A stretch of DNA of 64,000 nucleotides from Minisyncoccota bacterium (GCA_041651415.1 JBAZJH010000001.1:11374-75373), one strand, 5' to 3'. Shown: positions 1,457 through 35,255, counted from the first letter of the stretch. Notes: generated from the letters alone by a model not told the origin. A program made the numbers and translations.

Positions 1457-1497
1457 AATCAGTAAATAGTAAATAGAAATTATTAAATAGTAATTAG

Positions 1498-1875
1498 ATG
1501 AGTGGCAATATAAATAATTTTTACGATTTAAAAGTTTGGAAAGATGCTCATAAAATTATTTTAGAAATTTACAAAGAAACAAAAGATTTTCCTGATAGTG
1601 AAAAGTTTGGGTTAATTAGTCAAATGAGACGTTCAGCTTCTTCGATAACAGCAAATATAGCGGAAGGGTTTGGTAGATATCATTTTAAAGACAAAATAAA
1701 GTTTTATCAGCAAGCGAGAGGTTCGGCTGTGGAATTACAAGACCAAATATTTCTGTCTAAGGATTTGAATTTTATAGCAGAAAATAAAGCTAAAGAGTTA
1801 TTTGGTGATGTTTTAGTAGTTTTGAAAGAGATAAACGGGATAATAAAAAAAACAAAAGAAAGAATAAGTTTATAG
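1498..1875 (+). CDS. Four-helix-bundle protein (the '23S rRNA intervening-sequence protein' family)
   Basis: 125 aa, KVWKDAHKIILEIY...SQMRRSASSITANIAEGFGRYHFKDKIKFYQQARGSAVELQDQ. The characteristic motifs of the four-helix-bundle/S23 family are present. It ends with TAG. Confidence 0.7.
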   Translation: MSGNINNFYDLKVWKDAHKIILEIYKETKDFPDSEKFGLISQMRRSASSITANIAEGFGRYHFKDKIKFYQQARGSAVELQDQIFLSKDLNFIAENKAKELFGDVLVVLKEINGIIKKTKERISL

Positions 1876-1907
1876 TTTGTAATCGGTGATAGGAATAAAA
1901 ATAGAAA

Positions 1908-3005: not shown

Positions 3006-3242
3006 ATTATTTTTTTAATTTTTGAATATAAGTTTAGGTTAATGTTGCTCCGATATAATCGGAGTCCTCAATTTCTTGATCAAATCGTAGATTTGAAAGA
3101 AATTGGGAGATAAATATCTTTTTTCATATGCGGTTCAGTATAAGATAAAAAATGTTTTTTGGCAATAGGAGGAGAGAGGGTAATAATTAATTACTTATTT
3201 AAGTGATTTGTTTCCGGTGTTTTTTTAAGCCTGTTTTATATG

Positions 3243-3358
3243 AAGAATAACAGTTAAAAAAAACAGGGCTAATCACCATTCCGCCAAAGGCGGACAGGCA
3301 TTTTTTTAGCTGCTATTCTTCATAAATAATTTTTTGAGAGGTGAAAAGTTATGATAAA
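3243..3358 (+). repeat. Repeat family A, copy 1: terminator-like hairpin with conserved loop, plus downstream GAGG..GTGATAA box
   Basis: Stem gaagaataacag/ctgctattcttc. Loop aaaacagggctaatcaccattccgccaaaggcggacaggca. 3' box gagaggtgaaaagttatgataaag. Confidence 0.6.
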
Positions 3359-3547
3359 GTAACCCTTCGACTCGTCTCGCTCGCTCAGGAAATAAAATAA
3401 TAAGGCAATCTTTTAAATTATTGAACTTGCTTTAGGGGTAAATTTTCCTTTTTTAAAAAGGATTGCAAACCTCGATTAAGATAAAAAAATTGACGGATTG
3501 GTTTTTGTTTGATAAAAATAGAAAAGAACTTTTAGAGGAGGAAAAAA

Positions 3548-3963: not shown

Positions 3964-3993
3964 TTGACATAGGCAGGAGCTTTCTTATATAAT
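3964..3993 (+). promoter_or_regulatory. Candidate sigma70-type rRNA promoter (TTGACA-N18-TATAAT)
   Basis: ttgacataggcaggagctttcttatataat lies about 160 nt upstream of the 16S 5' end. Confidence 0.5.
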
Positions 3994-5174
3994 TCCCTTT
4001 ACGAACTTTGATAACTTAATAATACCAAAGAACTCTTAAGAAGACAGAGAGTTCTTTTAATCAAACCATATATTTAAAGAGAGTTTTTTTGTTGTTCCAG
4101 GTAAATTTTATATTAGGAAATAAATTAGGAATTTTGTTCTTAATTTGTTTCTTATTCTGAGGATTTGATCCTGGTCCAGGATGAACGCTGGCGGCGTGGA
4201 TAAGGCATGCAAGTCGAACGATTCTTTTTACTGATTTAATAGCAATATTAAAAAAGTTTTTAGAATAGTGGCGAACGAGTTAGTAACACCTTGGTTACAT
4301 ACCTTGAAGACAGGAATAATTCCGAGAAATCGGAACTAATACCTGATAATCTCCTTTCGCAAGATTGGAGTAAAGGAGCAATCCGCTTCAAGATTGGCCT
4401 AGGCCCGATCAGCTTGTTGGTGAGGTAAAAGCTCACCAAGGCTATGACCGGTAGGGGGGGTGAGAGCCCGAACCCCAACGACGGCACTGAGACACGGGCC
4501 GTACTCCTACGGGAGGCAGCAGTCGAGAATATTCCACAATGGGCGAAAGCCTGATGGAGCGACGCCGCGTGCAGGAAGAAGGCCTTCGGGTTGTAAACTG
4601 CGGTAGCTAGGGAGAAACTTCGGTGATAGTACCTAGCGGAAAGAGGTTGGTAACTACGTGCCAGCACCCGCGGTAATACGTAGACCTCGAGCGTTATCCG
4701 GATTTATTGGGCGTAAAGTGTGGGTAGGGGGCTTGGTAAGTCAGAAGTAAAATCAGGGGGCTTAACCTTCTGGCCGCTTTTGATACTGCTAGGCTTTGAG
4801 GACGTTAGGGGCTTGCAGAACGCACGGTGTAGGGGTAACATCCGTTGATATCGTGCGGAATACCAAAGGCGAAGGCAGCAAGCTGGGGCGTTCCTGACCC
4901 TGAGCCACGAAAGCGTGGGGAGCAAAAAGGATTAGATACCCTTGTAGTCCACGCCCTAAACGATGCCTGCTAGCTGTTTCGAGTATCGACCCTCGGAGTG
5001 GCGAAGCTAACGCGTTAAGCAGGCCGCCTGGGAAGTACGAGCGCAAGCTTAAAACTCAAAGGAATAGACGGGGACTCGCACAAGCGGTGGAGCATGAGGT
5101 TTAATTCGATGGTAAGCGAGGCACCTCACCAGGGTTTGAAATTCTAATGGAAAGCCGATGGAAACATTGGCCCT

Positions 5175-5276
5175 CCAGCCCCAGTTTCACTAAGAAGGCT
5201 AAAAAATCTTTTAGCTTTTATAGAGTGAAAAAATGCGCTTAATTTTATTTAGCGTAAATAGCGAAACTGGGGCTGG
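5175..5276 (+). repeat. 16S intervening element 1 (V6 helix tip), ~100 nt with a 17-nt terminal inverted repeat
   Basis: ccagccccagtttcact ... agcgaaactggggctgg, inserted between the conserved blocks ggaaacattggccctc and actgttagaacgggtgctgcacgg. Confidence 0.65.
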
Positions 5277-5389
5277 ACTGTTAGAACGGGTGCTGCACGG
5301 TTGTCGTCAGCTCGTGCCTTGAGGTGTTCCCTTAAGTGGGGTAACGAGCGCAACCCCTGTCGTCTGTTATAAGTGTCAGACGAGACTGC

Positions 5390-5496
5390 CCAGCCCCAAT
5401 TTCACTAGAAAATATTAAAATTATTTTATTTTGATATTTTTTGAGAAGTTATCGCCAGAAATTTTCTTTGGCGTTGTTAGCGAAATTGGGGCTGGG
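5390..5496 (+). repeat. 16S intervening element 2 (hairpin corresponding to E. coli ~1160-1175)
   Basis: ccagccccaatttcact ... agcgaaattggggctgg, inserted between gactgcc and ggaggaaggtgggg. Confidence 0.65.
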
Positions 5497-5620
5497 AGGA
5501 AGGTGGGGATGACGTCAAATCAGCGTGGCCCTCTGATACCCTGGGCGACACTCATGCTACAATGGCCGTTATAAAGGGTTGCTAAGCCGCGAGGCGGAGC
5601 TAATCTCAAAAAAGCGGCCT

Positions 5621-5657
<37 letters not shown>

Positions 5658-5760
5658 CCGGAATCGCTAGTAATCGCGCATCAGCCATGGCGCGGTGAAT
5701 ACGTTCTCGAGTCCTGTACTCACTGCCCGTCACGTCAAGGGAGCCGGAAGCACCTGAAGA

Positions 5761-5860
5761 CCAGCCCCAATTTCACTATAAAAATATTAAATTTTCATTT
5801 AATTTTTTTAAAAAGTTAGCGTCGGAAATTTTTCGATGTTGTCAGCGAAATTGGGGCTGG
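5761..5860 (+). repeat. 16S intervening element 3 (helix 44 tip)
   Basis: ccagccccaatttcact ... agcgaaattggggctgg, inserted between cacctgaagac and ttaagggtgagttcggtgac. Confidence 0.65.
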
Positions 5861-6158
5861 TTAAGGGTGAGTTCGGTGACATGGACGAAGTCGTAACAAG
5901 GCACGTGTAGCGGAAGCTGTGCGTGGAACAATTAAATAAAATAAAACTGATTTGGCTTTTGCCAAAAAAGATTTATTTAGGTCTTTGACTGATTTTAAAA
6001 AAATCAGAACAGGTTTTGGCCGCGCTCCGATAAAATCGGAGTTCCGATATAAGTTATGTCGGGAGAGCCTTCAAGTCGCGGCTATGACTTGGAACAACAA
6101 AAAAGCTCTTTTATAGAAAAAAATTGAGTTTCGGTTTTTAAAAAGGTATTATTAAAAC

Positions 6159-7662: not shown

Positions 7663-7749
7663 CGCGGGTGGCGAAACTGGCAGACGCACTACCTTGAGGT
7701 GGTAGCGCCCGCAAGGGCTTGGAGGTTCAAATCCTCTCCCGCGCACCAA
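7663..7749 (+). tRNA. tRNA-Leu (anticodon GAG), type II, CCA encoded
   Basis: Acceptor gcgcggg/cccgcgc, anticodon arm ctacc-ttGAGgt-ggtag, long variable arm, T-arm ggaggttcaaatcctct, 3' acca. Confidence 0.85.
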
Positions 7750-7750
7750 T

Positions 7751-7876
7751 GAAACTCTATGGCCTTACGACCGTAGAATCTTAAAGTTTCACCTCGTAGA
7801 AAGTCGGGGTTTATTAAATCTTAGCCGTAGAAACCTTGCGCTAACGCGCAATGTTTTTACGGAGATTTAATAAAAA
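7751..7876 (+). repeat. Repeat family B, copy 1 (structured ~125-nt element directly after tRNA-Leu)
   Basis: tgaaact..hairpin..aagtttca; cctcgtagaaagtcgggg; tttattaaatct .. agatttaataaa long-range complement. Near-identical core at 35130-35255. Confidence 0.6.
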
Positions 7877-10784: not shown

Positions 10785-12674
10785 ATGAGTTTGGAAAGCT
10801 TGGAGAAAAAACTTTATAAAAGAGAAAACGGAACAACAAAGAAAGAAAAAGGAGATTTTAAGAGAGGAAAAACGGAAAAAAGGGAATTGGGATGGAAAAA
10901 TAATCTTCCGGAAAATAGCGCTAAAGGCGGAAACTTTTTTTTAAATTGGAAAAGGAATCTGTTTTTGGCAGTTTTTTCTTTTTTTCTGATATCGTTGGCA
11001 ATCGGGGGATATTATCTCTTTCAAGCTTTTTATAGCGAAGGGATAGAGGTTCTTTTGGAAACGCCGGAAGGAGAGATTTATTTTGGCGTTCCTTTTAAAG
11101 TGGAAGCGGCGATTCACAATTCTTCGGGGAAGACTTTAGAAAATGTTTCTGTGGCGCTTTCTTTGCCGGAAGGATTTTCTTTCACGAGAGAAGAAAAAGG
11201 ACAAAAAGTGATAACGAAGACACTGGGGACGGTGGGAAATGAAAGTTTAAACAAGGAAGAATTTGAAATAGTGGCGACGGCGTCAACGGAAGGGACAAAG
11301 AGAGTAGAAGCGACTGTGTCTTATGGAATGGGCGGAGGCTCCGATTCTCGCTATGAAGAAAAAGGATATAAAGACATAAATATTGAAAATCCTTTAGTTT
11401 TTGCCGATATTAAGATTCCGGAGAAAGTTTACAGCGGAGAAAATTTTGAAATGGAAATTTCTTATCGCAATTTAATGCCAAAGCCGGCGGAAGGAGTTTC
11501 AATAGAAATTGAATATCCGAAAGAATTCAGATTCATTTCCAGCAAAGATAAAAAATCAAGCGACGGAGCGGGAAGACTATTTGAGTTTGATTCCATTCCT
11601 CAAGAAGAAGAAGGGAAAATAATCATTACGGGCAGCGTTTCCGGTCCCGATGGGTCTTTTTTCGAAGTGAAAGCGGCAGTGAAAAGAGAAATTTACGGGG
11701 AAGATTACGAGGTTTTAAAAATTTCCAAAGGATTTTCGATAAATTCATCGCCGCTTTCGCTTTTAATTTATGCCAATGACAGCGAAGATTATATTGTCAA
11801 ACCGGGAGATGTTCTAAAATATGCTTTAACTTATAAAAACGATACGGGAACAGATTTGAGAGATGTGATTATTACGGCGGAAATTTCAGGAGCGATGTTT
11901 GACGTTCCAACTTTAAATAGCGTCGGATTTTTTAATTCCATAAACAACACAATAACCTGGAATGCTTCCAATAAAAGCGAGCTTAGTTTGGTTCCGGCAG
12001 GAGGAACGGGAGAAGCGGATTTTTCCATAAGAGTCAAAGATTTTTATCCGATATACAGGTTAAGCGACAAAAATTTTGTTTTAAAGGTAAAGGGGAAAAT
12101 TGAATCGCCAACAGTGCCGGAAGGAGTGGGGGCCGACAAAACGACAGCGATGGCGGAAAACCAGGTGAAAGTGAGAGGGAAAATCGGCGTGGAATCGAAA
12201 GTTTTATTAAGGGATTCGATGAGCGGAGTGGTAAACGAGGGGGCTTGGCCGCCGAAAGTGGACGAAGGAACGGAATTTACAGTGCATTGGATTTTGACCA
12301 ATTACGCGACTGACGTGAAAGATGTTTCAATTAAATCGTTTTTAAATCCGGGAGTGAAATGGAAAGGCAACATAAAAGGAAACGCGACAACATTGCCGGA
12401 ATATAATGAAAGGACGCAGGAAATTGTTTGGAATGTGGGAGATGTGGCGGCGACAAAAGGCGTGATAGGAAGCCCGATTGAGGCGGTTTTCCAAATTGAA
12501 GCGACGCCGTCTATTTTATCTCTTCAAAATTATGTGCCGCTAGTTGGAAAAACAGAAGCGGAAGCGGAAGACGGTTTTACGGGGATTTCCTTGACGGCGG
12601 AAGACGAAGGGGCTACAACAAGATTGGCGGATGACCCGATGATAAAAGAAGGGGAAGGGAGAGTGATAAAATAA
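10785..12674 (+). CDS. Large membrane-anchored beta-rich surface protein, hypothetical
   Basis: N-terminal TM anchor (LFLAVFSFFLISLAIGGYYLF) followed by ~550 aa of repeated beta-strand-like modules. No catalytic motif recognised. Confidence 0.4.
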   Translation: MSLESLEKKLYKRENGTTKKEKGDFKRGKTEKRELGWKNNLPENSAKGGNFFLNWKRNLFLAVFSFFLISLAIGGYYLFQAFYSEGIEVLLETPEGEIYFGVPFKVEAAIHNSSGKTLENVSVALSLPEGFSFTREEKGQKVITKTLGTVGNESLNKEEFEIVATASTEGTKRVEATVSYGMGGGSDSRYEEKGYKDINIENPLVFADIKIPEKVYSGENFEMEISYRNLMPKPAEGVSIEIEYPKEFRFISSKDKKSSDGAGRLFEFDSIPQEEEGKIIITGSVSGPDGSFFEVKAAVKREIYGEDYEVLKISKGFSINSSPLSLLIYANDSEDYIVKPGDVLKYALTYKNDTGTDLRDVIITAEISGAMFDVPTLNSVGFFNSINNTITWNASNKSELSLVPAGGTGEADFSIRVKDFYPIYRLSDKNFVLKVKGKIESPTVPEGVGADKTTAMAENQVKVRGKIGVESKVLLRDSMSGVVNEGAWPPKVDEGTEFTVHWILTNYATDVKDVSIKSFLNPGVKWKGNIKGNATTLPEYNERTQEIVWNVGDVAATKGVIGSPIEAVFQIEATPSILSLQNYVPLVGKTEAEAEDGFTGISLTAEDEGATTRLADDPMIKEGEGRVIK

Positions 12675-12699
12675 AGAGTTAAAAGTTTATAAAGTAAAA

Positions 12700-14052: not shown

Positions 14053-14080
14053 GTAGTCATAAATGTATTTTAGAATAAGC

Positions 14081-14266
14081 CAAAAACAATCCTTCAAAAC
14101 AGGGCTAATCACCAATCGTTTTTCAGGAATGTTTTTGGTGAAAAAAGAGCATAAACAATCTCTCAAAATGGGGCTAATCGCCAGCCCGCCAAAGGCGGAT
14201 AAATTTTCTTCGAGAATGTTTATGCTCTTTAATATTTAAAAAGGGAGAGGAAGGGTGATAATAATG
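14081..14266 (+). repeat. Repeat family A, copies 2a+2b (two tandem hairpins with the GGGCTAATC loop, then the GAGG..GTGATAA box)
   Basis: ccaaaaacaat..acagggctaatcaccaatcg..tgtttttgg; gagcataaacaat..atggggctaatcgccagcccgccaaaggcgg..aatgtttatgctc; gggagaggaagggtgataataatg. Confidence 0.6.
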
Positions 14267-14421
14267 TATTTTACTTCGTAAAAGTTTTTTTAAAAAAAGA
14301 GAAAGAGGCGTAACAGAGATAATATTAAGAAGGGTTTTGGGGTTGCGAGAAAAATAGTTTTATAGTATGGTTTGAAACAGATTCAGATTTGAAAATTGAA
14401 TAAAGAAAAAGGAGAGAAGAG

Positions 14422-17738: not shown

Positions 17739-17791
17739 ATTATTTTTTTACTTTTGATTTTTGAGAGTGTTTTTTAGTAAGAAAGCAAAAC

Positions 17792-17905
17792 AAAAATAGC
17801 TTTGAAAAACAGGGCTAATCGCCATCATTTTTCAAAGCTATTTTTGTTTCAGTTTAAACTTTTTAATTTAATAATTTAAGAAAAGGTGAGGAGAGGTGAT
17901 TGATG
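17792..17905 (+). repeat. Repeat family A, copy 3 (perfect 18-bp stem, conserved loop, U-tract, GAGG..GTGAT box) upstream of metG
   Basis: caaaaatagctttgaaaa / ttttcaaagctatttttg. Loop acagggctaatcgccatca. Then aaaaggtgaggagaggtgattgatg. Confidence 0.6.
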
Positions 17906-17995
17906 TAGCTCCGACTTTATGTCGGAGCTTTTAAAATTAGGGCTTTTCAATTTAAATTTGGCAAAAGGAAGTTTTTTGAGTATGATGGATTTATT

Positions 17996-19435
17996 ATGGA
18001 AGAAAAGAAAAGGGTTTTTATATCAACAGCGATTCCTTATGTAAATGCCAAGCCGCATATCGGTTTTGCTTTGGAACTTGTTCAAGCCGATACTTATGCG
18101 AGATTTAAGAGGAGCGAAGGGGCGGATGTTTTCTTTTTAACGGGAACGGATGAAAACAGCTTAAAAAATGTGCAGGCGGCGGAGGAAGCGGGAAAAGAAA
18201 CTTCTGTTTTTGTGGAAAAAAATGCCAAGTTTTTTGAAAAATTGGTGCAAGATTTGAGTATATCCAATGACGATTTTATAAGAACTTCGGTGGAGGAAAG
18301 GCATAAAAGGGGAGCGGAGAAATTATGGAAAGCGTGCCAGCATGATATTTATAAAAAAAAATATAAAGGTTTTTATTGCGTGGGATGCGAGGAATTTAAA
18401 ACAGAAAAAGATTTGAACGAGAAGGGCAGGTGCCCGGAACATCCAAATAAAGACATAGAAATAGTGGAGGAAGAGAATTATTTTTTTAAACTTTCCAATT
18501 ATCAGGAAAAATTAAAGGAAGCAATAGAGACAGGGAAAATTCAGATAATTCCGGAAAAAAGAAAAAACGAAATGCTTTCTTTTATTAAAACAGGATTGGA
18601 AGATTTCAGCATTTCAAGAAGCAAAGAAAGGGCTAAGGGATGGGGGATTTCTGTTCCGAAAGATGAAAACCAAGTGATGTATGTTTGGTTTGATGCTTTA
18701 ACTAATTACATAACGGCTTTAGATTATGCCAATAAAGGGGAAAAATTCAAAGAGTATTGGGAAGGGGCGGAAGAAATAATTCATATAATCGGAAAAGGAA
18801 TAAACAGATTCCATACGATTTATTGGCCGGCAGTGCTATTATCGGCAGGGGAAAGAATGCCAAATAAAGTTTTTGCGCATGGGTATGTGACGGCAGGAGG
18901 GCAAAAGATGTCAAAGTCGCTCGGAAATGTTATTGACCCGTTTTCTTTAATAGAAAAATATGGAGCGGAGGCGGTTCGTTATTATCTGCTTAGAGAAATA
19001 CCGGCTTATGAAGACGGCGATTTTTCCATTGAAAAATTTGAAGCGAGATATAACGGAGATTTGGCAAACGGATTGGGAAATTTTGCTTCCCGAGTGTTGA
19101 AACTTTATTCCGAATACGGAGGAGAAGAAACAGAAGCGCTGGTTGATTTAGAAAAAGTTGAAGAGATAAAAGAAAAAATAGGAGAATTCAAGTTTAACGA
19201 GGCGATAGCTCTAATTTTTGAAATGATAACGGTGGGTGATAAATATTTTAATGAAAAGAAGCCGTGGGAAACTAAAGACGAGTCAATAATAGGAGATACC
19301 GTTGGTTTACTTAAAAAAGTGGCGGAACTTTTAATCCCATTTTTGCCGGGGACGGCAGAAAAGATTTTGGGGAAGATAAAGAATAAAGAAGCAATAAAAG
19401 AACCGTTGTTTCCGAGATTGGAAAAATTTAAATAG
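17996..19435 (+). CDS. metG: Methionyl-tRNA synthetase, short form without the C-terminal tRNA-binding domain
   Basis: Class I HIGH-like PYVNAKPHIGFA, KMSKS (GGQKMSKSLGNVIDP), zinc knuckle CVGCEEF...CPEHP. 479 aa. Confidence 0.75.
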   Translation: MEEKKRVFISTAIPYVNAKPHIGFALELVQADTYARFKRSEGADVFFLTGTDENSLKNVQAAEEAGKETSVFVEKNAKFFEKLVQDLSISNDDFIRTSVEERHKRGAEKLWKACQHDIYKKKYKGFYCVGCEEFKTEKDLNEKGRCPEHPNKDIEIVEEENYFFKLSNYQEKLKEAIETGKIQIIPEKRKNEMLSFIKTGLEDFSISRSKERAKGWGISVPKDENQVMYVWFDALTNYITALDYANKGEKFKEYWEGAEEIIHIIGKGINRFHTIYWPAVLLSAGERMPNKVFAHGYVTAGGQKMSKSLGNVIDPFSLIEKYGAEAVRYYLLREIPAYEDGDFSIEKFEARYNGDLANGLGNFASRVLKLYSEYGGEETEALVDLEKVEEIKEKIGEFKFNEAIALIFEMITVGDKYFNEKKPWETKDESIIGDTVGLLKKVAELLIPFLPGTAEKILGKIKNKEAIKEPLFPRLEKFK

Positions 19436-19463: not shown

Positions 19464-20276
19464 ATGAAGAACTTTAAATTGATTGATTGCCATGCGCATG
19501 TAAATTCGGAATTTTCTAAGGAAAATTATCCTGAAGTTTTGAGGCGGGCGCTTGAGACGGGAATAGCGGTAGTAAATGTGGGAACCAATAAAAAAGATTC
19601 GGAAGAAAATGTAAAAATAGCGGAAAGCTTTAAGGAGGGAGTTTTTGCGACTGTCGGAATGCATCCGACCGAAGAAGAAAAAATAAACTATGATTTTTTT
19701 AGAAAACTAGCGGAGAATAAAAAAGTGGTGGCGGTCGGAGAATGCGGACTTGATTATTTCAGAGTCAAGGACGATGAATTCAAAATTAGAGAAATTGAAA
19801 GACAAAAAGATTTATTTAAAGAACAAATAAAATTAGCAAAAGAAGTTGGAAAGCCGCTAATGCTTCATTTGCGGACGGCGGAAGCATATCGCGATGCTCT
19901 GGAAATCCTTCGACAAGCTCAGGATTTAAAGATGCCGAAGATAATCTTTCATTTTTATTCGGGCGGAGAGGAGTTTTTAGAAAGAGCTTTGAAGTTAGAC
20001 GCTTATTTTACTTTCGGGGGAACTTTAACTTTTAAAATGAAAGGGGGAGAAAAAAATGAATATGAAGAAGTTATAAAAAAAGTTCCCAAAGACAGAATTC
20101 TACTCGAAACAGACGCGCCATTTGTGGCGCCGGAGCCGAATCGAGGAAAAAGAAACGAGCCGATAATGATTGTGGAGACGGCAAAGAAGGCGGCGGAAAT
20201 TTTAGAAATGGAATTGGAAGAGTTTTTAGAGATAGAAAAGAAAAATGCGGAAAATGTTTTTGGGGTAAAATTATAA
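19464..20276 (+). CDS. tatD: TatD-family metal-dependent hydrolase/DNase
   Basis: LIDCHAHVN...GMHP...GECGLDY...LHLR...ETDAPF, the TatD signature histidines and acidic residues. Confidence 0.8.
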   Translation: MKNFKLIDCHAHVNSEFSKENYPEVLRRALETGIAVVNVGTNKKDSEENVKIAESFKEGVFATVGMHPTEEEKINYDFFRKLAENKKVVAVGECGLDYFRVKDDEFKIREIERQKDLFKEQIKLAKEVGKPLMLHLRTAEAYRDALEILRQAQDLKMPKIIFHFYSGGEEFLERALKLDAYFTFGGTLTFKMKGGEKNEYEEVIKKVPKDRILLETDAPFVAPEPNRGKRNEPIMIVETAKKAAEILEMELEEFLEIEKKNAENVFGVKL

Positions 20277-20298
20277 TTAGTTAAGATTGCTTTAAAAG

Positions 20299-20434
20299 AA
20301 TAGTAGCTAAAAAAACAGGGCTAATCGCCATTCCGCCAAAGGCGGACAGGCATTTTTTTAGCTACTATTCTTTTTTTCAGAATTGTCGGAAGTTCTTATA
20401 ATTTTTCAGTGAGGAGATAGAGTGATAATAAGGT
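20299..20434 (+). repeat. Repeat family A, copy 4
   Basis: gaatagtagctaaaaaaa / tttttttagctactattc (18 bp). Loop cagggctaatcgccattccgccaaaggcggacaggca. U-tract. gtgaggagatagagtgataataagg. Confidence 0.6.
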
Positions 20435-20556
20435 AATTGCCTAGTCGGCAATTTTTATTAGAAAATAGTTTTTGGATAAATTTATAAAAAGAAAAAAATA
20501 GTAAAACTGACAGAACATAGTTTTAGGAGAGGGGGTAAAGGCGAGAATGTCACAAA

Positions 20557-20696
20557 GAGCTACCGGCAAATCTTCGAAAAAAGGGCTAATCGCCAACCTA
20601 CCTATCGGCAGGCAGGAATTTTCTCAGAATTGCCGGTAGCTCTTGTTTTTTGTTCTGAATCTTAACTTTTTAGAGGGGGTGAAGGTGATAATGAGG
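20557..20696 (+). repeat. Repeat family A, copy 5
   Basis: gagctaccggcaa..aagggctaatcgccaacctacctatcggcaggcagg..ttgccggtagctc, then ttgttttttg, then gagggggtgaaggtgataatgagg. Confidence 0.6.
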
Positions 20697-20827
20697 TAGT
20701 TTTCTGCGAAAACTTATGTTTTTGAAGAGAAAACATGGTTAAAATAGGAGGTGTTTTTTGAATGTTTTTTAATGGTTAAAAAATAAGTATTTTAAAAAAA
20801 CCGCTTATTTAAGCGGTTTTTTGGCTG

Positions 20828-20856
20828 TTGACATTTTTGTAGAATGGGATTATAAT
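20828..20856 (+). promoter_or_regulatory. Consensus sigma70 promoter (TTGACA-N17-TATAAT) in the gene-free region
   Basis: ttgacatttttgtagaatgggattataat, immediately after a hairpin terminator (ccgcttatttaagcgg tttttt, 20801-20822). Confidence 0.55.
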
Positions 20857-21361
20857 TTACGGCGTAGAACATTGAAAGAAGTAAAAACGAATACCCTCTG
20901 GCTTTCAGCTAGAGGCAAAAAGTGAAAGGAGGATGGTTATGATTCGATGTGGTCCCCGGCGGAAGGAGACTTCCGCAAAGAAGAAAATTTGAATCTCGAT
21001 CGTCGCCGCCTAAGTGAGGTGCGAAGCCTCACTGGCAAAGAAAGGAGGGATTGTCATGAACAGGAAAATGACAAAATTTATCCCGCTTGAGGGATTCGGC
21101 TAGTTGCTGAGTCCTTCAAAAAATCATTTCGCCAGACTATTCTGGCGGTTATCCTGCTTCATCCGAAGCGCGCGCCTAGTTCGCCGAGATCTTTGGGTCT
21201 TGGGCTAGGTAGAATATGCGGCGGGCGACATCGGGTTGCCTGCCGACCGATCTTTTTTGAAGTTTTTTATCTCTTACCCCTTCCTCAAAAATCGTGGGAG
21301 ATATCTTCTTCTCCCAAACCGTCGGGGAGGAAAAGAGTTTACTCTTTTCCTCCCCAAATCG

Positions 21362-21394
21362 AAATCCCAACTAAAAAATGGGATTTTTTTATTT
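21362..21394 (+). terminator. Rho-independent terminator
   Basis: aaatcccaactaaaaaatgggattttttt, preceded by a 14-bp GC hairpin ggggaggaaaagag..ctcttttcctcccc (21324-21355). Confidence 0.6.
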
Positions 21395-21423
21395 TGATAA
21401 AAATATGAGAAAGAAAATGTTTT

Positions 21424-21457
21424 TGTCGATTATTGTCTGATCGGACAATAATCGACA
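21424..21457. promoter_or_regulatory. 34-bp palindrome P, copy 1 (candidate operator)
   Basis: tgtcgattattgtctgatcggacaataatcgaca. A second copy at 48913-48946 has C at the one central difference. Confidence 0.5.
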
Positions 21458-21670
21458 AAAAGGAAAATGGGAAAAAAGAAAAAAATTATAATAAAGTTAA
21501 TTATTAGATTTAATAAATCCCGCCATAGGCGGGGTGAAACTTTAAAATTATATGGCTATAAGGCCGTGGAGTTTCATTTTAAACAGAATTTAGAGAAATA
21601 TAAAAAAATGTGGCTCTTCGACAAGTTCAGAGACTAATTTTTTAAAATAAGACAAAGTGGAAAAATGGAG

Positions 21671-21699
21671 TTGACAGTTAAAAAGGAGAGGAGTATAAA
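21671..21699 (+). promoter_or_regulatory. Second sigma70-like promoter (TTGACA-N17-TATAAA) in the gene-free region
   Basis: ttgacagttaaaaaggagaggagtataaa. A hairpin plus U-tract terminator lies at ~22125-22170 (cccccgagcgcttttagcgtttgggggttttt). Confidence 0.4.
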
Positions 21700-22231
21700 G
21701 AAAAAACAGCACCTTGAATATCTTAATCTGACGCTGGTTTTTCTTTTTCTCTTCTAATCGCGATAGAAGCTGAAAAAGGAGAGCCGATTCTAAAAAAGGG
21801 AGGACACTGCGTATGATTGTTTGTATTCGTAGTATTCGTAGTTCGGTGTTTTCGTCGACGCGGTAAACCGACCATAATTGACCTTCTTTCTTTCGGTCTG
21901 CGAGATAGCTCGCAGAAGGAGAAAAATTATAATTATGCGGACAAGAAGCGGATGGCCTTAGCTTTTATAGTTGAAATAAAAAGAGGCCGTGGCTACAGGC
22001 CAGAGTAAAAAAACGAAGCCGAAGTGTCAGATGGAAAAGGAAAATTCCGTACGAGGAAGAAAAAGATAAAAAGAGGCAATGCAAAGCCTAAAAATTCAAA
22101 TAACTTTTTCTTCCCGAAAATAAAAACCATCACCCCCGAGCGCTTTTAGCGTTTGGGGGTTTTTAATTTTGAAATTTAAGGATTTTATTCTATATTGAAA
22201 AGAAGAGGATATAAATAATTAGTGAGTAAGA

Positions 22232-22334
22232 GAATTTCCGGTAAATCTTCGAAAAAAGGGCTAATCGCCAAAATTTTCTCAGAATTACCGGAAATTCTTC
22301 TAACTTTTTAAAAGTGAGGGAGAGTGATAAGATT
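22232..22334 (+). repeat. Repeat family A, copy 6, ending 9 nt before the leuS start codon
   Basis: gaatttccggtaa..aaaaaagggctaatcgccaaaattttctcagaa..ttaccggaaattc, then ttctaactttttaaa, then agtgagggagagtgataagattg. Confidence 0.6.
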
Positions 22335-22342
22335 GTAAAAAA

Positions 22343-25192
22343 ATGGAAAAATACGAGCATAAAAGAATAGAAGAAAAATGGCAGAAATATTGGGAGGAAC
22401 ATCCGGAGCTGTCGCGGGCGGAGGATTTTTCCGATAAGTCCGCCTCATCTAATGGGCGAGATAAACCGAAACAATATAACTTAGTGGAATTTCCATATCC
22501 AAGTGGAGCAGGGCTGCATGTGGGGCATGTCAGGAGTTATACGGCGCTTGATGTTATGAGCCGAAAAATGAGAATGGAAGGGAAAAATGTTTTATATCCG
22601 ATCGGCTGGGACGCCTTCGGACTGCCGACAGAAAATTATGCCATAAAAAATAAAATACATCCGAGAAAAGCGACGGAGCAGAATATCGCTGTTTTTAGAA
22701 GACAACTGAAGGCGCTCGGTATTTCTTTTGATTGGGGGAGAGAAATAGACACAACAGACCCGAATTATTATAAATGGACGCAGTGGATATTTTTAAAGCT
22801 GTTTGAAAAAGGGCTGGCGTATAAAAAGAAGATGGCGATAAATTGGTGTCCGTCTTGCAAGATTGGGCTCGCAAACGAAGAAGTGATAGACGGGAAGTGC
22901 GAGCGGTGCGGAACCTCGACAGAGAAAAAAGAAAAAGAGCAGTGGATGCTCGCGATAACAAAATATGCGGACAGATTGATAAGCGATTTAGAGATAGTGG
23001 ATTATTCGGAGAAAATTAAGACGCAACAAATAAATTGGATCGGGAGGAGCGAGGGAGCTTTAATAAAATTTAAGATTGTGGAAGGTGATTCAACGACCGA
23101 CTCAGAAAATAAAATAAAGGTGTTTACGACGAGGCCGGATACTTTGTTCGGATGCACTTATCTTGTTTTGTCGCCGGAACACGAATCAGTATTTGAGTTG
23201 AAGGAAAAAATTGAAAATTGGGAAGAGGTGGAAAAATATATTGAGGCGGCAAAAAATAAATCCGATTTAGAAAGGGGGGATTTGAATAAAGAAAAAACAG
23301 GAGTGGAATTAAAGGGAATAAAAGCGATAAATCCGGCAAATGAGAAAGAAGTGCCGATATTTGTGGCGGATTATGTTTTATCCGGATATGGAACGGGAGC
23401 GATTATGGCGGTGCCGGCGCATGACGAGAGAGATTATGAATTTGCGAAGAAATACAAGTTGCCGATTTGCCAGGTTATAAAGAAACTAAACACTGATATT
23501 AGAAGCTTTTTAATGGGAGCAGATGATATTAAAAATGAGGAATTAGAATCGCTAGGCATTACTTTTGAAGTTGATAAGGACAGTGATCGCAAGCTTATTA
23601 TTCCGGAGCCAAGCATAAAAGAATACGAAAAGTTGATAGGAGAAAAGATGGAAAATAATTTTTGGAATGAATATGTTGGCAGTGAAGCGGTATTTATTTT
23701 TAAACATGAAGATGGAAAAATTGAGCGAATTGTTCTTAATAATGAAACAGAAAATCGTATACATGAATTAACAGAGCGATTTGCCAAGACTAAGTTTGTT
23801 GATCCTTGGACTATGCTTATTGATAATGCTTGGTATAGAGAAGTTATGGTTCATTCGGATTACGGAATTTTAATGAATTCGGGAGAGTTTGATGGAATGA
23901 ATAGCGAGGAGGCGAAGTGGAAAATAACAGAAAAAGCGGGAGGAGAAAGAACGACGCAATATAAATTAAGAGATTGGGTTTTTTCAAGACAGCATTATTG
24001 GGGAGAGCCGATTCCGCTTGTGTTCTGCGAACACTGCGCGGAACAAGTTAAAAGTGAAAAGTTAAAAGTTGAAAGTAAGGGAGAGATAATGAATCCGGGG
24101 TGGATGGCGGTCGAGGAAAAAGAGTTGCCGGTGGAACTGCCGGAAGTGGAAAGCTATGAGCCGACAGACACAGGGGAATCTCCGCTTGCTTTAATGGAAG
24201 ATTGGGTGAAAACAACCTGTCCGAAATGCGGGGGAGAGGCAAAAAGAGAAACAGACACGATGCCGAATTGGGCGGGGTCAAGCTGGTATTATCTTGCGTA
24301 TGCGACGCGAGGAATTTCTAATGACGAATTTTTGATTCCTAAAAATAAGGAAGTTTTAAAATATTGGATGCCGGTTGATTTGTATAACGGAGGAATGGAA
24401 CATACGACGCTTCATCTTTTGTATTCCAGATTTTGGAATAAGTTTTTGTTTGATATCGGAGTCGTTCCTTTTTCCGAACCGTATAAAAAAAGGCGTTCGC
24501 ACGGAATAGTTTTAGCGGAAGACGGAAGGAAAATGAGCAAGTCGTTTGGCAATGTGATAAATCCGGACGAAATTGCGGAAAGGTTCGGGGCGGATTCTTT
24601 GCGTCTTTATGAAATGTTTATGGGCCCGTTTTCGGAAATGATTCCATGGAATACGGACGGACTGGTGGGGGTGAAAAAGTTTTTAGAAAGAGTTTTTGCG
24701 CTTTTAGAAAAGGTGGAGGAGGGAGTATTTAAGAATTTAGAAAAAATAACTCACCAAACAGTTAAAAAAGTAAGCGAAGATATAGAAATGATGAAATTCA
24801 ATACGGCGGTGGCGCAGATGATGATTTGGGCGAATGAGGCGACAAAAGCAAAGGAGATAGGAAAGGATAATTTGGAAATGTTTTTGAAGGTTTTGGCGCC
24901 GTTTGCGCCGCATATAGCGGAAGAAATTTGGGAGCGATTGGGAAATAAAGAAAGCATATTTAAAGAAAAATGGCCGGCGTATGACGAAGAAAAGACGAAG
25001 GATGAAAAAATAACTTTAGTGATTCAAGTGAACGGAAAAGTGAGAGATAAAATGGAAGCGGTGGCGGAGATAAATAAGGAAGAAGCAAAAGAAGCGGCTT
25101 TAGCTTCGGAAAAGATAAAAAAGATATTAGAAGGAAAGGAAATAAAGAAAATTATCTTTATAGAAGGAAAACTGATTAATATCGTTGTATAA
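22343..25192 (+). CDS. leuS: Leucyl-tRNA synthetase
   Basis: HIGH region PYPSGAGLHVGHVRSY, KMSKS (GRKMSKSFGNVINP), CP1 editing-domain motifs, zinc motifs CPSCKIG..CERCG. 949 aa. Confidence 0.9.
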   Translation: MEKYEHKRIEEKWQKYWEEHPELSRAEDFSDKSASSNGRDKPKQYNLVEFPYPSGAGLHVGHVRSYTALDVMSRKMRMEGKNVLYPIGWDAFGLPTENYAIKNKIHPRKATEQNIAVFRRQLKALGISFDWGREIDTTDPNYYKWTQWIFLKLFEKGLAYKKKMAINWCPSCKIGLANEEVIDGKCERCGTSTEKKEKEQWMLAITKYADRLISDLEIVDYSEKIKTQQINWIGRSEGALIKFKIVEGDSTTDSENKIKVFTTRPDTLFGCTYLVLSPEHESVFELKEKIENWEEVEKYIEAAKNKSDLERGDLNKEKTGVELKGIKAINPANEKEVPIFVADYVLSGYGTGAIMAVPAHDERDYEFAKKYKLPICQVIKKLNTDIRSFLMGADDIKNEELESLGITFEVDKDSDRKLIIPEPSIKEYEKLIGEKMENNFWNEYVGSEAVFIFKHEDGKIERIVLNNETENRIHELTERFAKTKFVDPWTMLIDNAWYREVMVHSDYGILMNSGEFDGMNSEEAKWKITEKAGGERTTQYKLRDWVFSRQHYWGEPIPLVFCEHCAEQVKSEKLKVESKGEIMNPGWMAVEEKELPVELPEVESYEPTDTGESPLALMEDWVKTTCPKCGGEAKRETDTMPNWAGSSWYYLAYATRGISNDEFLIPKNKEVLKYWMPVDLYNGGMEHTTLHLLYSRFWNKFLFDIGVVPFSEPYKKRRSHGIVLAEDGRKMSKSFGNVINPDEIAERFGADSLRLYEMFMGPFSEMIPWNTDGLVGVKKFLERVFALLEKVEEGVFKNLEKITHQTVKKVSEDIEMMKFNTAVAQMMIWANEATKAKEIGKDNLEMFLKVLAPFAPHIAEEIWERLGNKESIFKEKWPAYDEEKTKDEKITLVIQVNGKVRDKMEAVAEINKEEAKEAALASEKIKKILEGKEIKKIIFIEGKLINIVV

Positions 25193-27911: not shown

Positions 27912-28042
27912 TTCAAAAATTACCTTAAAGTAATAATAACATTTTATTTTCTCTCGGGCTAATTTTTTAAGATCAATTTTCTTATGTATAAAGATATTAT
28001 AGCAATTTAGGATGGGTTTGAGAAAAAAAGTTAAATAATAAA

Positions 28043-28104
28043 GCTCTGATGTAGAGTCGGAGCAATGATTTTTCGACATGCTTCGCATGGGAAAAATCTA
28101 TTGC
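28043..28104 (+). repeat. Repeat family C, copy 1 (hairpin ctc[c/t]ga[c/t]-N5-gtcggag followed by caatgatttttcgayatgctt[c/t]gcatgggaaaaatctattgc)
   Basis: Second copy at 29000-29061, 59/62 nt identical. Confidence 0.6.
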
Positions 28105-28986: not shown

Positions 28987-29109
28987 AAGTAAAATTGCAG
29001 CTCCGACGTATAGTCGGAGCAATGATTTTTCGATATGCTTTGCATGGGAAAAATCTATTGCTGTTTTAAGCAGTTTATTATATTATGGATTAAGTTTCAA
29101 TAATAAATT

Positions 29110-32856: not shown

Positions 32857-32958
32857 AAAGATTATTTCTTAATATTTTATTTACGTATTTTTTAATTTTA
32901 TAACAGATTCTTAATTTGGTATAATTTAATCATTAAAATTAATTTTTTGTTTTAGACC

Positions 32959-33204
32959 ATGAAGCTTAATCAAAAGGGGTTGGCGATGACTTTGGGAGTA
33001 ATGTGGGGAGTTTGTTTTTTCGCCATGACTTTAATTTCGGCGAATAACGGATATGCGGGAGAATTTTTAAAAATTTTTGTCGGGGTTTATCCGGGTTATG
33101 AAATAAGCGTGGCGGGAAGCGTTACCGGACTGGTTTATGGGTTTATTGACGGATTTGTCAGCGGATACATTCTTGTTTGGCTTTATAATAAATTTTCCAA
33201 ATAA
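32959..33204 (+). CDS. Small two-TM membrane protein
   Basis: 81 aa, Gly/aromatic-rich TM helices. Confidence 0.35.
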   Translation: MKLNQKGLAMTLGVMWGVCFFAMTLISANNGYAGEFLKIFVGVYPGYEISVAGSVTGLVYGFIDGFVSGYILVWLYNKFSK

Positions 33205-33206
33205 AA

Positions 33207-33473
33207 ATGGCGGAAATAAGAAAAAAAATCTGGCCAGAATATTTTGAAGCAGTGGAGTCCGGGAAAAAGAAGTTTGAATTGCGTTTAAATGATTTTGAAA
33301 TAAAGGAAGGAGACACGCTTATACTAGAAGAGTGGAATCCCGAAACGAAAGAATACACAGGCAGAAAAACGGAAAAGAAAGTAGTAAGGGTTGATAAGTT
33401 TATGATAGACAAATTATTTTGGCCGGAAGAGGAAATAAAAGAAAAAGGAATTCAGATAATGTCTTTAGAATGA
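33207..33473 (+). CDS. ASCH/DUF3850-like small PUA-fold protein
   Basis: IWPEYFEAVESGKKKFELRLNDFEIKEGDTLILEEW...YTGRK matches the DUF3850/ASCH N-terminal pattern. Confidence 0.45.
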   Translation: MAEIRKKIWPEYFEAVESGKKKFELRLNDFEIKEGDTLILEEWNPETKEYTGRKTEKKVVRVDKFMIDKLFWPEEEIKEKGIQIMSLE

Positions 33474-33769
33474 AAAATATAACAAAAACGACTTTATTTA
33501 CGGCAGGACTGTCTTTTGTGACGGTAGCTTTGGCGATTTTTATGCAACTTAGAGCGGAGGAAAGTTTGTCTTTAAAATGCAGTTATCTTGACCCGATTGG
33601 CATAGATATTTTGGCGTTTTTGGCCGCTCTATTTTTAGCAACAGAGGGAATAATCAGAATTTACGAACATAAAAATTATTCTTTACTAAAACAGGCGACG
33701 AGAGCTATTCGAGTGGCGTTCGGATGCGCGATTATGATGCTCCATATCTTGCAGTTTTGGTATAAGTAA
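33470..33769 (+). CDS. Small membrane protein (start reassigned to the Met overlapping the upstream stop)
   Basis: MKNITKTTLFTAGLSFVTVALAIF... with three predicted TM helices. Confidence 0.35.
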   Translation: MKNITKTTLFTAGLSFVTVALAIFMQLRAEESLSLKCSYLDPIGIDILAFLAALFLATEGIIRIYEHKNYSLLKQATRAIRVAFGCAIMMLHILQFWYK

Positions 33770-33965
33770 TAAATAAAAGATAAAGGTGGATTCCCGCCTT
33801 CGCGAGAATGACAGGTTGAAGCTTCTTAATATTAATTGGCTCATAAATTAAAAAAAGATAGATTTCTATTTTTGTGAGAATGACGGAAAGTTTTTCACAT
33901 GGGACAATGTGGTATAATTAAATTAAAGTCGCAGCGTTTCTTTATAAATTAATTTTTAATTATTT

Positions 33966-34076
33966 ATGTGCCAAGAATGCGGATGCGAGCCGTGCGGAAA
34001 ATGTGGAGCGAAAATTGAAGACGGAAAATGTTCGGGATGCGGAAAACCGGCTGAGGAGTGCGAGTGTGAAGGCTAG
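33966..34076 (+). CDS. Cys-rich 36-aa peptide (11 Cys), possibly metallothionein-like
   Basis: MCQECGCEPCGKCGAKIEDGKCSGCGKPAEECECEG. An extended -10 (tgg tataat) lies ~30 nt upstream. Not in the ORF track because of its length. Confidence 0.3.
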   Translation: MCQECGCEPCGKCGAKIEDGKCSGCGKPAEECECEG

Positions 34077-34118
34077 TTTTTAAATTAAAAACAGAAAGGT
34101 CGCAAATATTATATTTTT

Positions 34119-34316
34119 ATGGGAAAATTAAATGTTTTAGATTGGGTGGCTTTAATTCTGACAATTATAGGCGGATTAAACTGGGGTTTAGCTCCGATGG
34201 GAATAAATTTAGTGACGATGATTCTTAGCGAAGGAATGTGGGCTAATATTGTTTATTACTTAGTCGGACTTTCCGCTATTTATCTTTTGATTATTTCGCC
34301 GAAACTAAGAAAGTAA
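34119..34316 (+). CDS. DUF378-like small membrane protein
   Basis: LDWVALILTIIGGLNWGLAPMGINLV...YYLVGLSAIYLL matches the DUF378 pattern. Confidence 0.5.
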   Translation: MGKLNVLDWVALILTIIGGLNWGLAPMGINLVTMILSEGMWANIVYYLVGLSAIYLLIISPKLRK

Positions 34317-34391
34317 TTTTAAAAGATAATTCTAAAAAAGCGGCTTCAATATTTTATCGGAGCCGTTTTTTTGTGTTAAAATTATCGAAAG

Positions 34392-35132
34392 ATGTGGAGC
34401 AAACTTAGTCGAGACACAAGAAGGGTGATTTTGGCGATTTTAGCCGCGGGAGCGATTATTTTTGCTGTCCAGATTTTTGAAATTATTTGGTATTACGGAG
34501 TGCAGGGAGTAAAACTGAAAGCGGAGACGCAAGCGTTTTCCTTGGAGAGAGAAGTATCACTTGGAAAAATTTTAATAATAGGAGACAGTACGGGGGCGGG
34601 AACAGGAGCAAACAGTTCAAAAGAAACAATTGCCGGATTTTTGGCGGAAGAAGGATTTTTTGTAAAAAATAAAGCGGAATGGGGGGCGATGACGGAAGAA
34701 ATTGTCGGACAGCTTAAAGGAGAAGAAAAAAAAAATTATGATTTAGTCCTTATTTTTACCGGAGGTAATGACATTCTATGGTTCTATGATTTAGATAAGA
34801 CGGTTTTAAATTTGGAAAAAACTTTGGAAAAAGCGAAGGAAGTTGGGAGGAGAGTGGCAATAGTGCCGCCCGGGAATGTGGGACTGGCGCCTATGTTTAA
34901 AGAACCGGTTGGGCTTCTTTACACGAGAAGAACAAAGTTTGTTAGATCGGAATTTATGAAAGTAGCGAAAGAAAAAGGAGCTATTTATGTGGATTTATTT
35001 ACGGATAATTTAGAAGAACTTTTTTCCGGAGAGCCGCTTAAATATTTTGCTTCGGATTTGCTTCATCCAAGTTCGGAAGGATATAAAGTGTGGTATGAAA
35101 AATTAAAGGAAGCGCTGAATGGAGAAAAATGA
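34392..35132 (+). CDS. SGNH/GDSL-family hydrolase
   Basis: ILIIGDSTGAG (block I Ser), IFTGGNDI (block III), and a C-terminal DLLHPS (Asp/His). N-terminal TM anchor. Confidence 0.65.
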   Translation: MWSKLSRDTRRVILAILAAGAIIFAVQIFEIIWYYGVQGVKLKAETQAFSLEREVSLGKILIIGDSTGAGTGANSSKETIAGFLAEEGFFVKNKAEWGAMTEEIVGQLKGEEKKNYDLVLIFTGGNDILWFYDLDKTVLNLEKTLEKAKEVGRRVAIVPPGNVGLAPMFKEPVGLLYTRRTKFVRSEFMKVAKEKGAIYVDLFTDNLEELFSGEPLKYFASDLLHPSSEGYKVWYEKLKEALNGEK

Positions 35133-35255
35133 AACTTCACGGCCGTAAGGCCGTGGAATCTTAAAGTTTCACCTCGTAGAAAGTCGGGTTTTATTAAATC
35201 TTTACCGCTTCAACTCCCTAGCTAACGCGCGGGGTTTTCGCGAAGATTTAATAAA
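35130..35255 (+). repeat. Repeat family B, copy 2, beginning at the SGNH stop codon and lying upstream of the grpE promoter
   Basis: tgaaacttcacggccgtaaggccgtggaatcttaaagtttcacctcgtagaaagtcgggttttattaaatctt...ctaacgcgcggggttttcgcgaagatttaataaa. The inner stem shows compensatory changes relative to copy 1 (cacggcc/ggccgtg versus tatggcc/gaccgta). Confidence 0.6.

Follow-up and report, generated by a model that had tools for sequence, protein, structure and literature searches.

Intergenic regions (IGRs) that are both long and rich in GC in AT-rich genomes are an established enrichment criterion for structured non-coding RNAs (ncRNAs) (Stav, 2019, PMC6429828; Brewer, 2021, PMC8632094; Narunsky, 2024, PMC11109978). 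The orphan or "unnamed" candidates of these GC-IGR surveys combine a long IGR of high GC and no open reading frame (ORF) with a promoter and terminator of their own and a strong predicted fold. The large RNAs ROOL, GOLLD, OLE and raiA are several hundred nucleotides (nt) long with many hairpins, are transcribed as stand-alone units and had no known protein partner when they were discovered. To our knowledge, the ncRNA repertoire of the tiny and dense genomes of the Candidate Phyla Radiation (CPR)/Patescibacteria is almost unexplored. Here we describe the gap between tatD and leuS (positions 20277-22342) in a 64,000-nt stretch of a CPR/Paceibacterota genome (JBAZJH010000001.1:11374-75373), hereafter the window. 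The gap consists of genome-specific intergenic punctuation (copies of a repeat A, an inverted copy of a repeat D7 and a palindrome) and two unique promoter-to-terminator units, U1 and U2, the first of which is a good candidate for a structured ncRNA.

U1 (20863-21394, ~530 nt, with a GC-rich core at 20863-21262) is a textbook candidate by the intrinsic criteria of the GC-IGR surveys: it lies in a long, ORF-free IGR, is rich in GC, has its own promoter and terminator, and its predicted fold is strong, strand-specific and more stable than its composition explains. The survey pipelines promote candidates only when several homologues with covariation are at hand, and U1, with its one representative, would be filed as "unnamed". 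Like ROOL, GOLLD, OLE and raiA, U1 is several hundred nt long, has many hairpins, is predicted to be transcribed on its own and has no known protein partner. Unlike these RNAs, which are conserved across many species and adopt ornate multi-junction folds, U1 was found in one genome, has no match in Rfam and contains mostly simple and perfect hairpins.

The gap is 2066 nt long and is the longest IGR of the window, followed by IGRs of 1535 and 1039 nt. Unless stated otherwise, the features of the gap and its flanking genes lie on the + strand. The gene order is metS (17996-19435), tatD (19464-20276), gap, leuS (22343-25192), and the same gap sequence (100% identity) is present in a contig of a separate ENA assembly. 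On that contig, which is identical to the window, tatD was identified by PF01026 (TatD_DNase) and leuS by Pfam together with LeuS protein matches. The longest ORF starting with ATG, GTG or TTG within the gap encodes 71 amino acids (aa), which bears out the gene-free interval of the original prediction, a first reading of the sequence by eye. Terminator-like and promoter-like sites are both more frequent in the surrounding 20000-22600 stretch than expected by chance (12 versus 2.5 ± 1.5 and 11 versus 5.2 ± 2.4 in shuffled sequences, respectively). Three intragenomic repeat families are present in the gap, while a scan of it for tandem repeats and CRISPR-like arrays found none. The second-longest stretch of the window without a large gene (32857-34391, 1535 nt, GC 0.34) holds only a 116-aa ORF (33419-33769) and a promoter-like site with 10 of 12 matches (32897-32925).

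The U1 promoter is a TTGACA-N17-TATAAT sequence (20828-20856) with a 12/12 match to the consensus. It is directly preceded by a 7-bp hairpin between an A-run and a T-run (20794-20822; self-complementary BLAST match 20795-20822) that resembles a bidirectional terminator, so that the textbook promoter placed straight after a hairpin terminator was described correctly in the original prediction. This exact promoter pattern occurs four times in the window compared to 0.03 expected occurrences, and with the N18 form included there are five perfect promoters in the 64 kb. Since the other four precede three protein genes and the 16S rRNA gene (3964-3993), this genome makes use of promoters that match the consensus perfectly.

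The 3' part of U1 contains a perfect 15/15 palindrome (GGGGAGGAAAAGAGT/ACTCTTTTCCTCCCC, 21324-21355, no strand assigned), which by self-complementarity gives a hairpin of 14-15 bp, and a terminal hairpin followed by U7 (21361-21394), which folds as an intrinsic terminator. A unit of ~500 nt running to a double hairpin with a U-tract is thus confirmed, with the correction that an additional terminator-like hairpin (11 bp) with U-runs lies inside U1 at 21219-21269. This internal site is a possible 3' end of a ~400-nt U1 core.

The GC content of the U1 core is 0.50 and thereby similar to that of the 16S gene (0.49), compared to 0.28-0.40 for other IGRs and 37-40% for the flanking genes. The whole unit folds with -215 kcal/mol, corresponding to a minimum free energy (MFE) z-score of -8.46, and none of 100 dinucleotide shuffles was as stable; the reverse complement gave z -4.7. 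When the palindrome-rich 3' end was removed, the remaining 400-nt core had z-scores of -6.03 on the + strand and -1.58 on the - strand, with free energies of -163 and -115 kcal/mol, respectively. Among 640 segments of 200 nt covering both strands of the whole window, 21201-21400 on the + strand ranked first (z about -10), and the four best-ranked segments all fall in the gap, above those containing the 16S gene or tRNAs. The MFE and centroid structures of U1 nearly coincide. The predicted fold has 12-13 local hairpins, including one with a GAGA (GNRA) tetraloop and one with a GCGAA loop, and the 5' end pairs with the U-rich 3' region and thereby encloses the hairpins. Of the 161 predicted pairs, 18 are G.U pairs, which become A.C mismatches on the other strand. 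We argue that these pairs account for the strand asymmetry, which would place the structure at the RNA level rather than at the DNA level.

We put the probability at roughly one half that the gap, in addition to its punctuation modules, contains at least one genuine, strongly expressed, stable and trans-acting structured RNA, namely U1. Its transcription, stability and action in trans are what we infer from the promoter, terminators, composition and folding, and a role as protein-binding scaffold or sponge is a guess. RNA polymerase would start at ~20863, using a sigma-70 promoter that matches the consensus perfectly and belongs to the class of the 16S promoter, and produce an rRNA-like RNA (50% GC) of 400-530 nt. 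This RNA would fold into about ten local hairpins, with its 5' end and U-rich 3' region paired around them. Transcription would stop at 21219-21269 and/or 21361-21394, with the palindrome at 21420-21461 as a possible back-stop. The product would not be translated but work as RNA, and U2 (21706-22170) may give rise to another transcript of this general kind, with less structure. It is a more tentative proposal that U1 is the first known member of a class of structured ncRNAs that are large (~400-530 nt) and highly expressed, in an unsampled Paceibacterota lineage lacking the anti-Shine-Dalgarno (anti-SD) sequence, and that the modules of repeat A and its purine box are a new multi-copy cis-acting RNA element. 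A 2-kb non-coding island with an rRNA-grade promoter and a strongly folding 400-nt core is an unusual investment for a tiny genome. If U1 is expressed, it would represent a new RNA class from a lineage without cultured or closely sequenced relatives.

The original prediction had likened the two units to stable RNA genes such as signal recognition particle (SRP) RNA, 6S RNA, transfer-messenger RNA (tmRNA) or RNase P RNA. Of this, the view of U1 as a candidate for an independent structured RNA of the + strand stands, while none of the four named families was found. With Rfam 15 at the gathering threshold no match was obtained in the gap when the window was scanned, and separate scans of the gap, U1 and U2 at E≤10 gave only noise at the level of hairpins or terminators. 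The Rfam/Infernal scan that had been suggested for the locus consequently places none of the three in a known RNA family. Neither SRP RNA nor 6S RNA gave a covariance-model match at E≤10, whether the gap, U1 or U2 was scanned. The only RF00010 match for RNase P RNA (class A/B) was an 8-bit hairpin, and the P4 CR-I motif (GAGGAAAGUCC) is absent from the gap at up to three mismatches.

The U1 core is similar in size to tmRNA (ssrA) and has a strong promoter and terminator as well. In contrast to tmRNA, it has no tRNA-like domain: we found no GGUUCGA-type T-loop, T-arm, G3.U70 pair, 3' CCA context or tag ORF in U1, and ARAGORN detected six tRNAs and no tmRNA in the whole window, with no match to the RF00023 clan at E≤10. 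The 5' segment GGAGGAUGGUUAUGAUUCGAUGUGG of U1 shows a likeness by eye to GGGGCUGAUUCUGGAUUCGACGGG at the 5' end of Escherichia coli tmRNA, with its D-loop-like GAUUCGA region; this likeness is a lead and not a test. The failure to match RNase P, tmRNA and SRP cores by eye, as reported originally, therefore agrees with the Rfam, ARAGORN and P4 motif searches. A highly diverged tmRNA, RNase P RNA, SRP RNA or 6S RNA would explain the fitting size of the ~400-nt core, the strong promoter, the terminator and the rRNA-like GC. However, these negative searches, the missing T-arm, G3.U70 and 3' CCA context and the lack of an RNA gene at the tatD-leuS position in relatives make it highly improbable that U1 or U2 is such a housekeeping RNA.

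For comparison with relatives we collected 160 LeuS-anchored loci from genome and metagenome contigs, all with ≤57% identity. The closest LeuS proteins among GTDB species representatives, JGI metagenomes and a collection of 5.8 billion proteins are ~50-60% identical; for the N-terminal 150 aa the best non-self match was 73%, and its contig (L172) has no gap. The ORF-free stretch that precedes leuS has a median length of 90 nt and a maximum of 717 nt across 121 loci of other CPR genomes. tatD lies immediately upstream of leuS in 15 of these 121 loci, with gaps from -8 to 579 nt (median about 30). As tatD-leuS gaps are short in relatives, the 2-kb island is a lineage-specific insertion and not a conserved RNA locus, which is the outcome that the original prediction had itself named as speaking against it. 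The relatives are very distant, and their short gaps show that the island is specific to its lineage but not that it lacks a function. The long gaps upstream of leuS that do occur in relatives (among others L005, L079, L140 and L115) were folded, and some are rich in hairpins, while none is related in sequence; a Rfam scan of these gaps found no known RNA. In L140 (2665-3320) and L115 (5508-6000), leuS is immediately preceded by unrelated and extremely hairpin-rich or duplicated sequence, for which z is about -10 on either strand. A 1.6-kb contig (L169, JGI 3300037067) is 96.9% identical to window positions 641-2275 and hence derives from a close strain variant in the source community.

The gap is non-coding. 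Codon-usage log-odds, trained on the genes of the window, never exceed 0.10 for the best of the six frames in the gap, compared to a gene mean of 0.27 and a maximum of 0.07 for the 16S control. Six-frame fragments of the gap gave no tblastn match in 1.75 Mb of relatives' loci and no Pfam family. An exact cluster look-up of ten gap ORFs among ~15 billion proteins returned self matches only, and two gap ORFs called by other pipelines are singleton clusters in the same collection. An exhaustive phmmer search with a 47-aa gap ORF against 1.84 billion representatives likewise found only itself. We give practically no credence to the remnant of one or more decayed protein genes, for which the purine-rich 3' half of U2, reminiscent of coding strands in this genome, and a stop-free frame of 124 codons on the - strand (21593-21964) could be cited. 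Neither codon scores nor tblastn and Pfam searches agree with it, and no gene is missing at the locus, since tatD and leuS are adjacent in relatives. A split protein gene that frameshift correction might have restored, the other outcome that had been named as fatal to the ncRNA view, was accordingly not seen by tblastn, Pfam or codon scan.

The two micro-ORFs of U1, micro-ORF 1 (MIRCGPRRKETSAKKKI, 20939-20992, originally placed at 20927-20980) and micro-ORF 2 (MNRKMTKFIPLEGFG, 21056-21103), are preceded by Shine-Dalgarno (SD)-like motifs and had been credited with perfect SDs. The motifs are indeed present as sequence, but their reading as SDs falls with the anti-SD, which is missing here. The 16S 3' tail (5880-5938) reads GGAACAAUUAAAUA where the consensus is GGAUCACCUCCUUU, as aligned by Infernal with high posterior probability, and CCUCC is absent from the tail and downstream of it. 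No SD was found at the ~50 real gene starts checked in the window. Many genes of the window instead have TATAAT 7-10 nt upstream of the ATG and look leaderless; a TATAAT just upstream of the ATG is a signature of leaderless mRNAs. Loss of the anti-SD has been described for about half of the Parcubacteria (Tsurumaki et al., 2022, PMC9297842), and the genome of the window fits this anti-SD-less subgroup.

GGAGG is not enriched in the gap (five copies versus ~3.7 expected from the 114 copies on the + strand of the window). The + strand is purine-rich, and ~20% of the GGAGG copies in the window have an ATG within 3-12 nt. The stretches with an SD-like motif and ATGATT moreover loosely resemble the recurrent non-coding purine box of this genome. 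We therefore rejected both micro-ORFs as genes, given a 16S rRNA without anti-SD, genes without SD and the frequency of GGAGG. Translation into small proteins or leader peptides is very improbable, both for the micro-ORFs with SD-like motifs (17, 15 and 17 aa) and for the gap ORFs of 41-71 aa. AAAGGAGG does occur 6-7 nt upstream of an ATG twice in U1, GGGAGG stands 9 nt upstream of an ATG in U2, and the two peptides of 17 aa both begin with MI-C. Against this, besides the missing CCUCC tail, the SD-less gene starts and the common purine motifs, there is neither coding potential nor a protein family or homologue. Nor do the units qualify as SD-led leader-peptide attenuators, a reading that had been offered as an alternative: no SD:anti-SD pairing is available, the micro-ORF peptides contain no Leu codons, no gene lies downstream within their transcript and the units end in strong terminators. 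In anti-SD-less Parcubacteria (about half), a perfect Shine-Dalgarno plus ATG is thus not evidence of a gene.

Downstream of U1, a spacer-less palindrome of 21/21 nt (TTTTTGTCGATTATTGTC.GA/TC.GACAATAATCGACAAAAA, 21420-21461) is terminator-like on both strands. It has a second copy at 48911-48946, and both copies lie between transcription units. It is followed by an inverted (- strand) copy of the D7 repeat (21506-21590), a double hairpin with AUUUAUUAAA that was recognised by repeat comparison within the window. The D7/D11 repeat is a ~130-nt double hairpin ending in AUUUAUUAAAU and is also found at 7748-7874, 35128-35255 and, as a partial copy, at 49025-49059. The + strand copies lie directly 3' of tRNA-Leu (7748) and of gene 34392-35132. 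D7/D11 has no match in Rfam and is probably a terminator module.

The second unit, U2 (21706-22170, ~465 nt, GC 0.41), follows a TTGACA-N17-TATAAA promoter (21671-21699) with 11 of 12 matches. The promoter is present as predicted, although its -10 element lacks the T at the last position, which is usually invariant. TATAAA also stands 7-8 nt upstream of the ATG of two apparently leaderless genes at 12700 and 55642. The predicted hairpin terminator of this second unit of ~450 nt was likewise found, as an intrinsic terminator (22132-22170) with a 13-bp stem (22132-22160, eight GC pairs) followed by TTTTTAATTTT. U2 folds with z-scores of -5.85 (+) and -2.33 (-) and is a weaker ncRNA candidate than U1. 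Homology between U1 and U2 was considered and found unconvincing beyond a shared ATGATT. A further promoter-like sequence, TTGAAA-N16-TATATT (10/12), is located at 22169-22196, upstream of the last repeat-A copy and leuS.

Three copies of repeat A, and not two as first counted, are present in the gap, each consisting of a hairpin and a purine box; the first two modules also end in a small terminator. Copy A1 (20294-20374) starts 18 nt past the tatD stop codon and has a 22-bp perfect stem, an apical GGGCTAATCGCC and an inner CCGCC/GGCGG hairpin. Its identity with the repeat-A copy at 3243-3320 is 92-97%. A weak promoter-like TTTTCA-N17-TATAAT (10/12, 20374-20402), which may be incidental, separates it from its purine box (CAGTGAGGAGATAGAGTGATAATAAGGTA, 20407-20435), and a closing 7-bp hairpin (20435-20453) followed by TTTATTAGAA forms a terminator-like site (20435-20460). 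Copy A2 (20555-20646) contains an extra inner hairpin and is followed by its purine box (20672-20699) and, read from the sequence, by a small GTTTTC-TGC-GAAAAC hairpin with a T-rich run (20699-20724). Copy A3 (22230-22300) was found by repeat comparison and a covariance model, and its purine box (22310-22337) ends 5 nt upstream of the leuS ATG. A2 and A3 are close paralogues in direct orientation flanking U1 and U2, with 86-97% identity over the best stretches (97% for the left arm of A2) and a similarity that extends from the 5' stem to the purine box inclusive.

In total, repeat A has eight copies in ~29 kb, all on the + strand and most beginning 12-40 nt past a stop codon; the copies outside the gap are at 3242-3322, 14078-14139, 14144-14231, 17787-17850 and, on another contig of the genome, L167:5878-5970. 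The apex AAAAnRGGGCUAAUCRCCA is invariant among copies, while the stems vary yet stay complementary, with double changes in 16 of 26 pairs. A covariance model recovered the eighth copy (L167:5878), on which it had not been trained, with 43 bits and found nothing credible outside this genome, where the search covered 1.85 Mb of viral loci and loci from other CPR genomes. A 32-bit match inside the leuS coding sequence of L007 was dismissed, as were four core matches in viral contigs, which lie within coding sequence without a hairpin and are attributed to chance.

The purine box was defined by an alignment of nine boxes with the consensus AAAAGGGAGGGAGAGTGATAATAATGTA and lies 40-60 nt downstream of repeat A or of other long hairpins. 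Outside the gap, boxes are found at 3328-3372, 12640-12684, 14234-14278, 17876-17920, L167:5972-6016 and L167:6386-6430. Directly after the box comes a small hairpin with a T-run or, in the case of leuS, the start codon. The box core GGUGAU and the AUCRCC of the repeat-A loop are complementary over 6 bp, which suggests a loop-to-box pseudoknot beside a terminator, and through this pairing the modules may act as attenuators. The modules also occur near unrelated genes (L25/SLT, an HD-domain gene and an AI-2E transporter), and the copy at metS is closed by a terminator that precedes the promoter of metS itself.

The position upstream of an aminoacyl-tRNA synthetase (aaRS) gene recalls T-box and other aaRS leaders, and A1 and A2 likewise show a long hairpin followed by a terminator. 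In contrast to such leaders, the gap has neither a T-box sequence nor a match to RF00230, and the repeat-A module is not confined to aaRS genes. U1, U2 and A3 could in principle form a long multi-attenuator leader, or an array of upstream promoters, by which the read-through into leuS is tuned. Every unit has the same orientation as leuS, a promoter-like site comes after each of the successive terminators, and the A3 hairpin and purine box fall within the last 115 nt upstream of the leuS ATG. This arrangement is nevertheless improbable, as no T-box or other known leader was found and the micro-ORFs lack Leu codons, strong terminators with 13-bp and 14-bp stems separate the units without an evident antiterminator, and leuS is expressed in relatives behind gaps of 0-100 nt.

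Repeat A, D7 and the 21420 palindrome resemble repetitive extragenic palindromes and bacterial interspersed mosaic elements (REP/BIME), miniature inverted-repeat transposable elements (MITEs) and other palindromic families in being multi-copy intergenic hairpins clustered in IGRs. In contrast to MITE/REP elements, however, the repeat-A stems vary with compensatory changes around an invariant loop, the opposite of the conserved terminal repeats that transposases recognise. No transposase was found in the Pfam context of the window, and both U1 and U2 occur just once in 80 kb of the genome. We therefore did not assign the gap to mobile repeats of the MITE/REP type. An integrated mobile element was also considered: A2 and A3 do flank U1 and U2 as direct repeats, in the manner of att sites, but the gap has no ORF above 71 aa and no integrase or recombinase, and no phage, plasmid or viral-contig match was obtained.

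Several observations weigh against U1 as a functional RNA. The short tatD-leuS gaps of relatives imply that its function is neither ancestral nor widely required. Across 1.75 Mb of leuS loci from relatives, blastn and nhmmer detected no U1 or U2 homologue, which leaves the fold without covariation support; with the nearest LeuS so distant, no U1 homologue was to be found. No match to either unit was obtained in phages and plasmids (blastn) or in viral contigs (pattern scans), and ~16 kb more of the same genome contained one more repeat-A copy but no paralogue of U1 or U2. Several stems are perfectly paired, and two elements form perfect palindromes that have no spacer, which is as consistent with young or DNA-level elements as with RNA. 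Finally, the direct repeats A2 and A3 would fit an origin of the U1 and U2 block from foreign or selfish DNA, by insertion or by recombination at a duplicated module.

These points lead to the rival that we take most seriously although we consider it rather unlikely, namely that the island is a functionless accretion of selfish or recombinogenic palindromic DNA and foreign fragments between duplicated repeat-A modules, with the promoter and terminator signals as by-products. A lineage-specific island without homologues, three intragenomic repeat families with perfect palindromes and the flanking A2/A3 repeats all speak for such a process, and a GC-rich island with SD-like motifs in an SD-less genome could mark a foreign origin. 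Other CPR genomes have unrelated hairpin-rich gaps upstream of leuS (L140, L115), and many IGRs in GC-IGR surveys end as "unnamed" or "mobile/repeat". On the other hand, U1 and U2 are not repeated in the available 80 kb, the U1 fold is strongly strand-asymmetric and co-oriented with a perfect promoter, and its GC matches that of rRNA rather than an arbitrary value. Moreover, 1 kb of junk with a consensus promoter would be costly, because CPR genomes are small and dense. We therefore prefer U1 as a structured RNA among punctuation modules. Should the island be selfish or junk, it would be a record of the build-up and duplication of hairpin modules between the genes of a reduced genome.

A few other features of the window were noted. 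The 16S gene (4153-5938) is 1786 nt long compared to 1533 nt for the model and thus contains ~250 nt of insertions; inside it, especially at 5175-5860, are three copies of an inverted-repeat pair (CCAGCCCCAATTTCAC... / ...GCGAAATTGGGGCTGG). A 63-nt direct repeat (28042-28104 and 28999-29061, 92% identical) lies beside tRNA-Ser and tRNA-Arg. Gene 1498-1875 encodes a PF05635 protein (23S rRNA intervening-sequence protein, or four-helix bundle similar to Avd of diversity-generating retroelements), and no reverse transcriptase was seen adjoining it. On the - strand, a 1167-aa ORF (49108-52611) is full of internal repeats of the GTTGGCGGC type (families D1-D5). Because the annotated 5' end of this ORF contains a perfect consensus promoter (52581-52553), its true start is probably further downstream.

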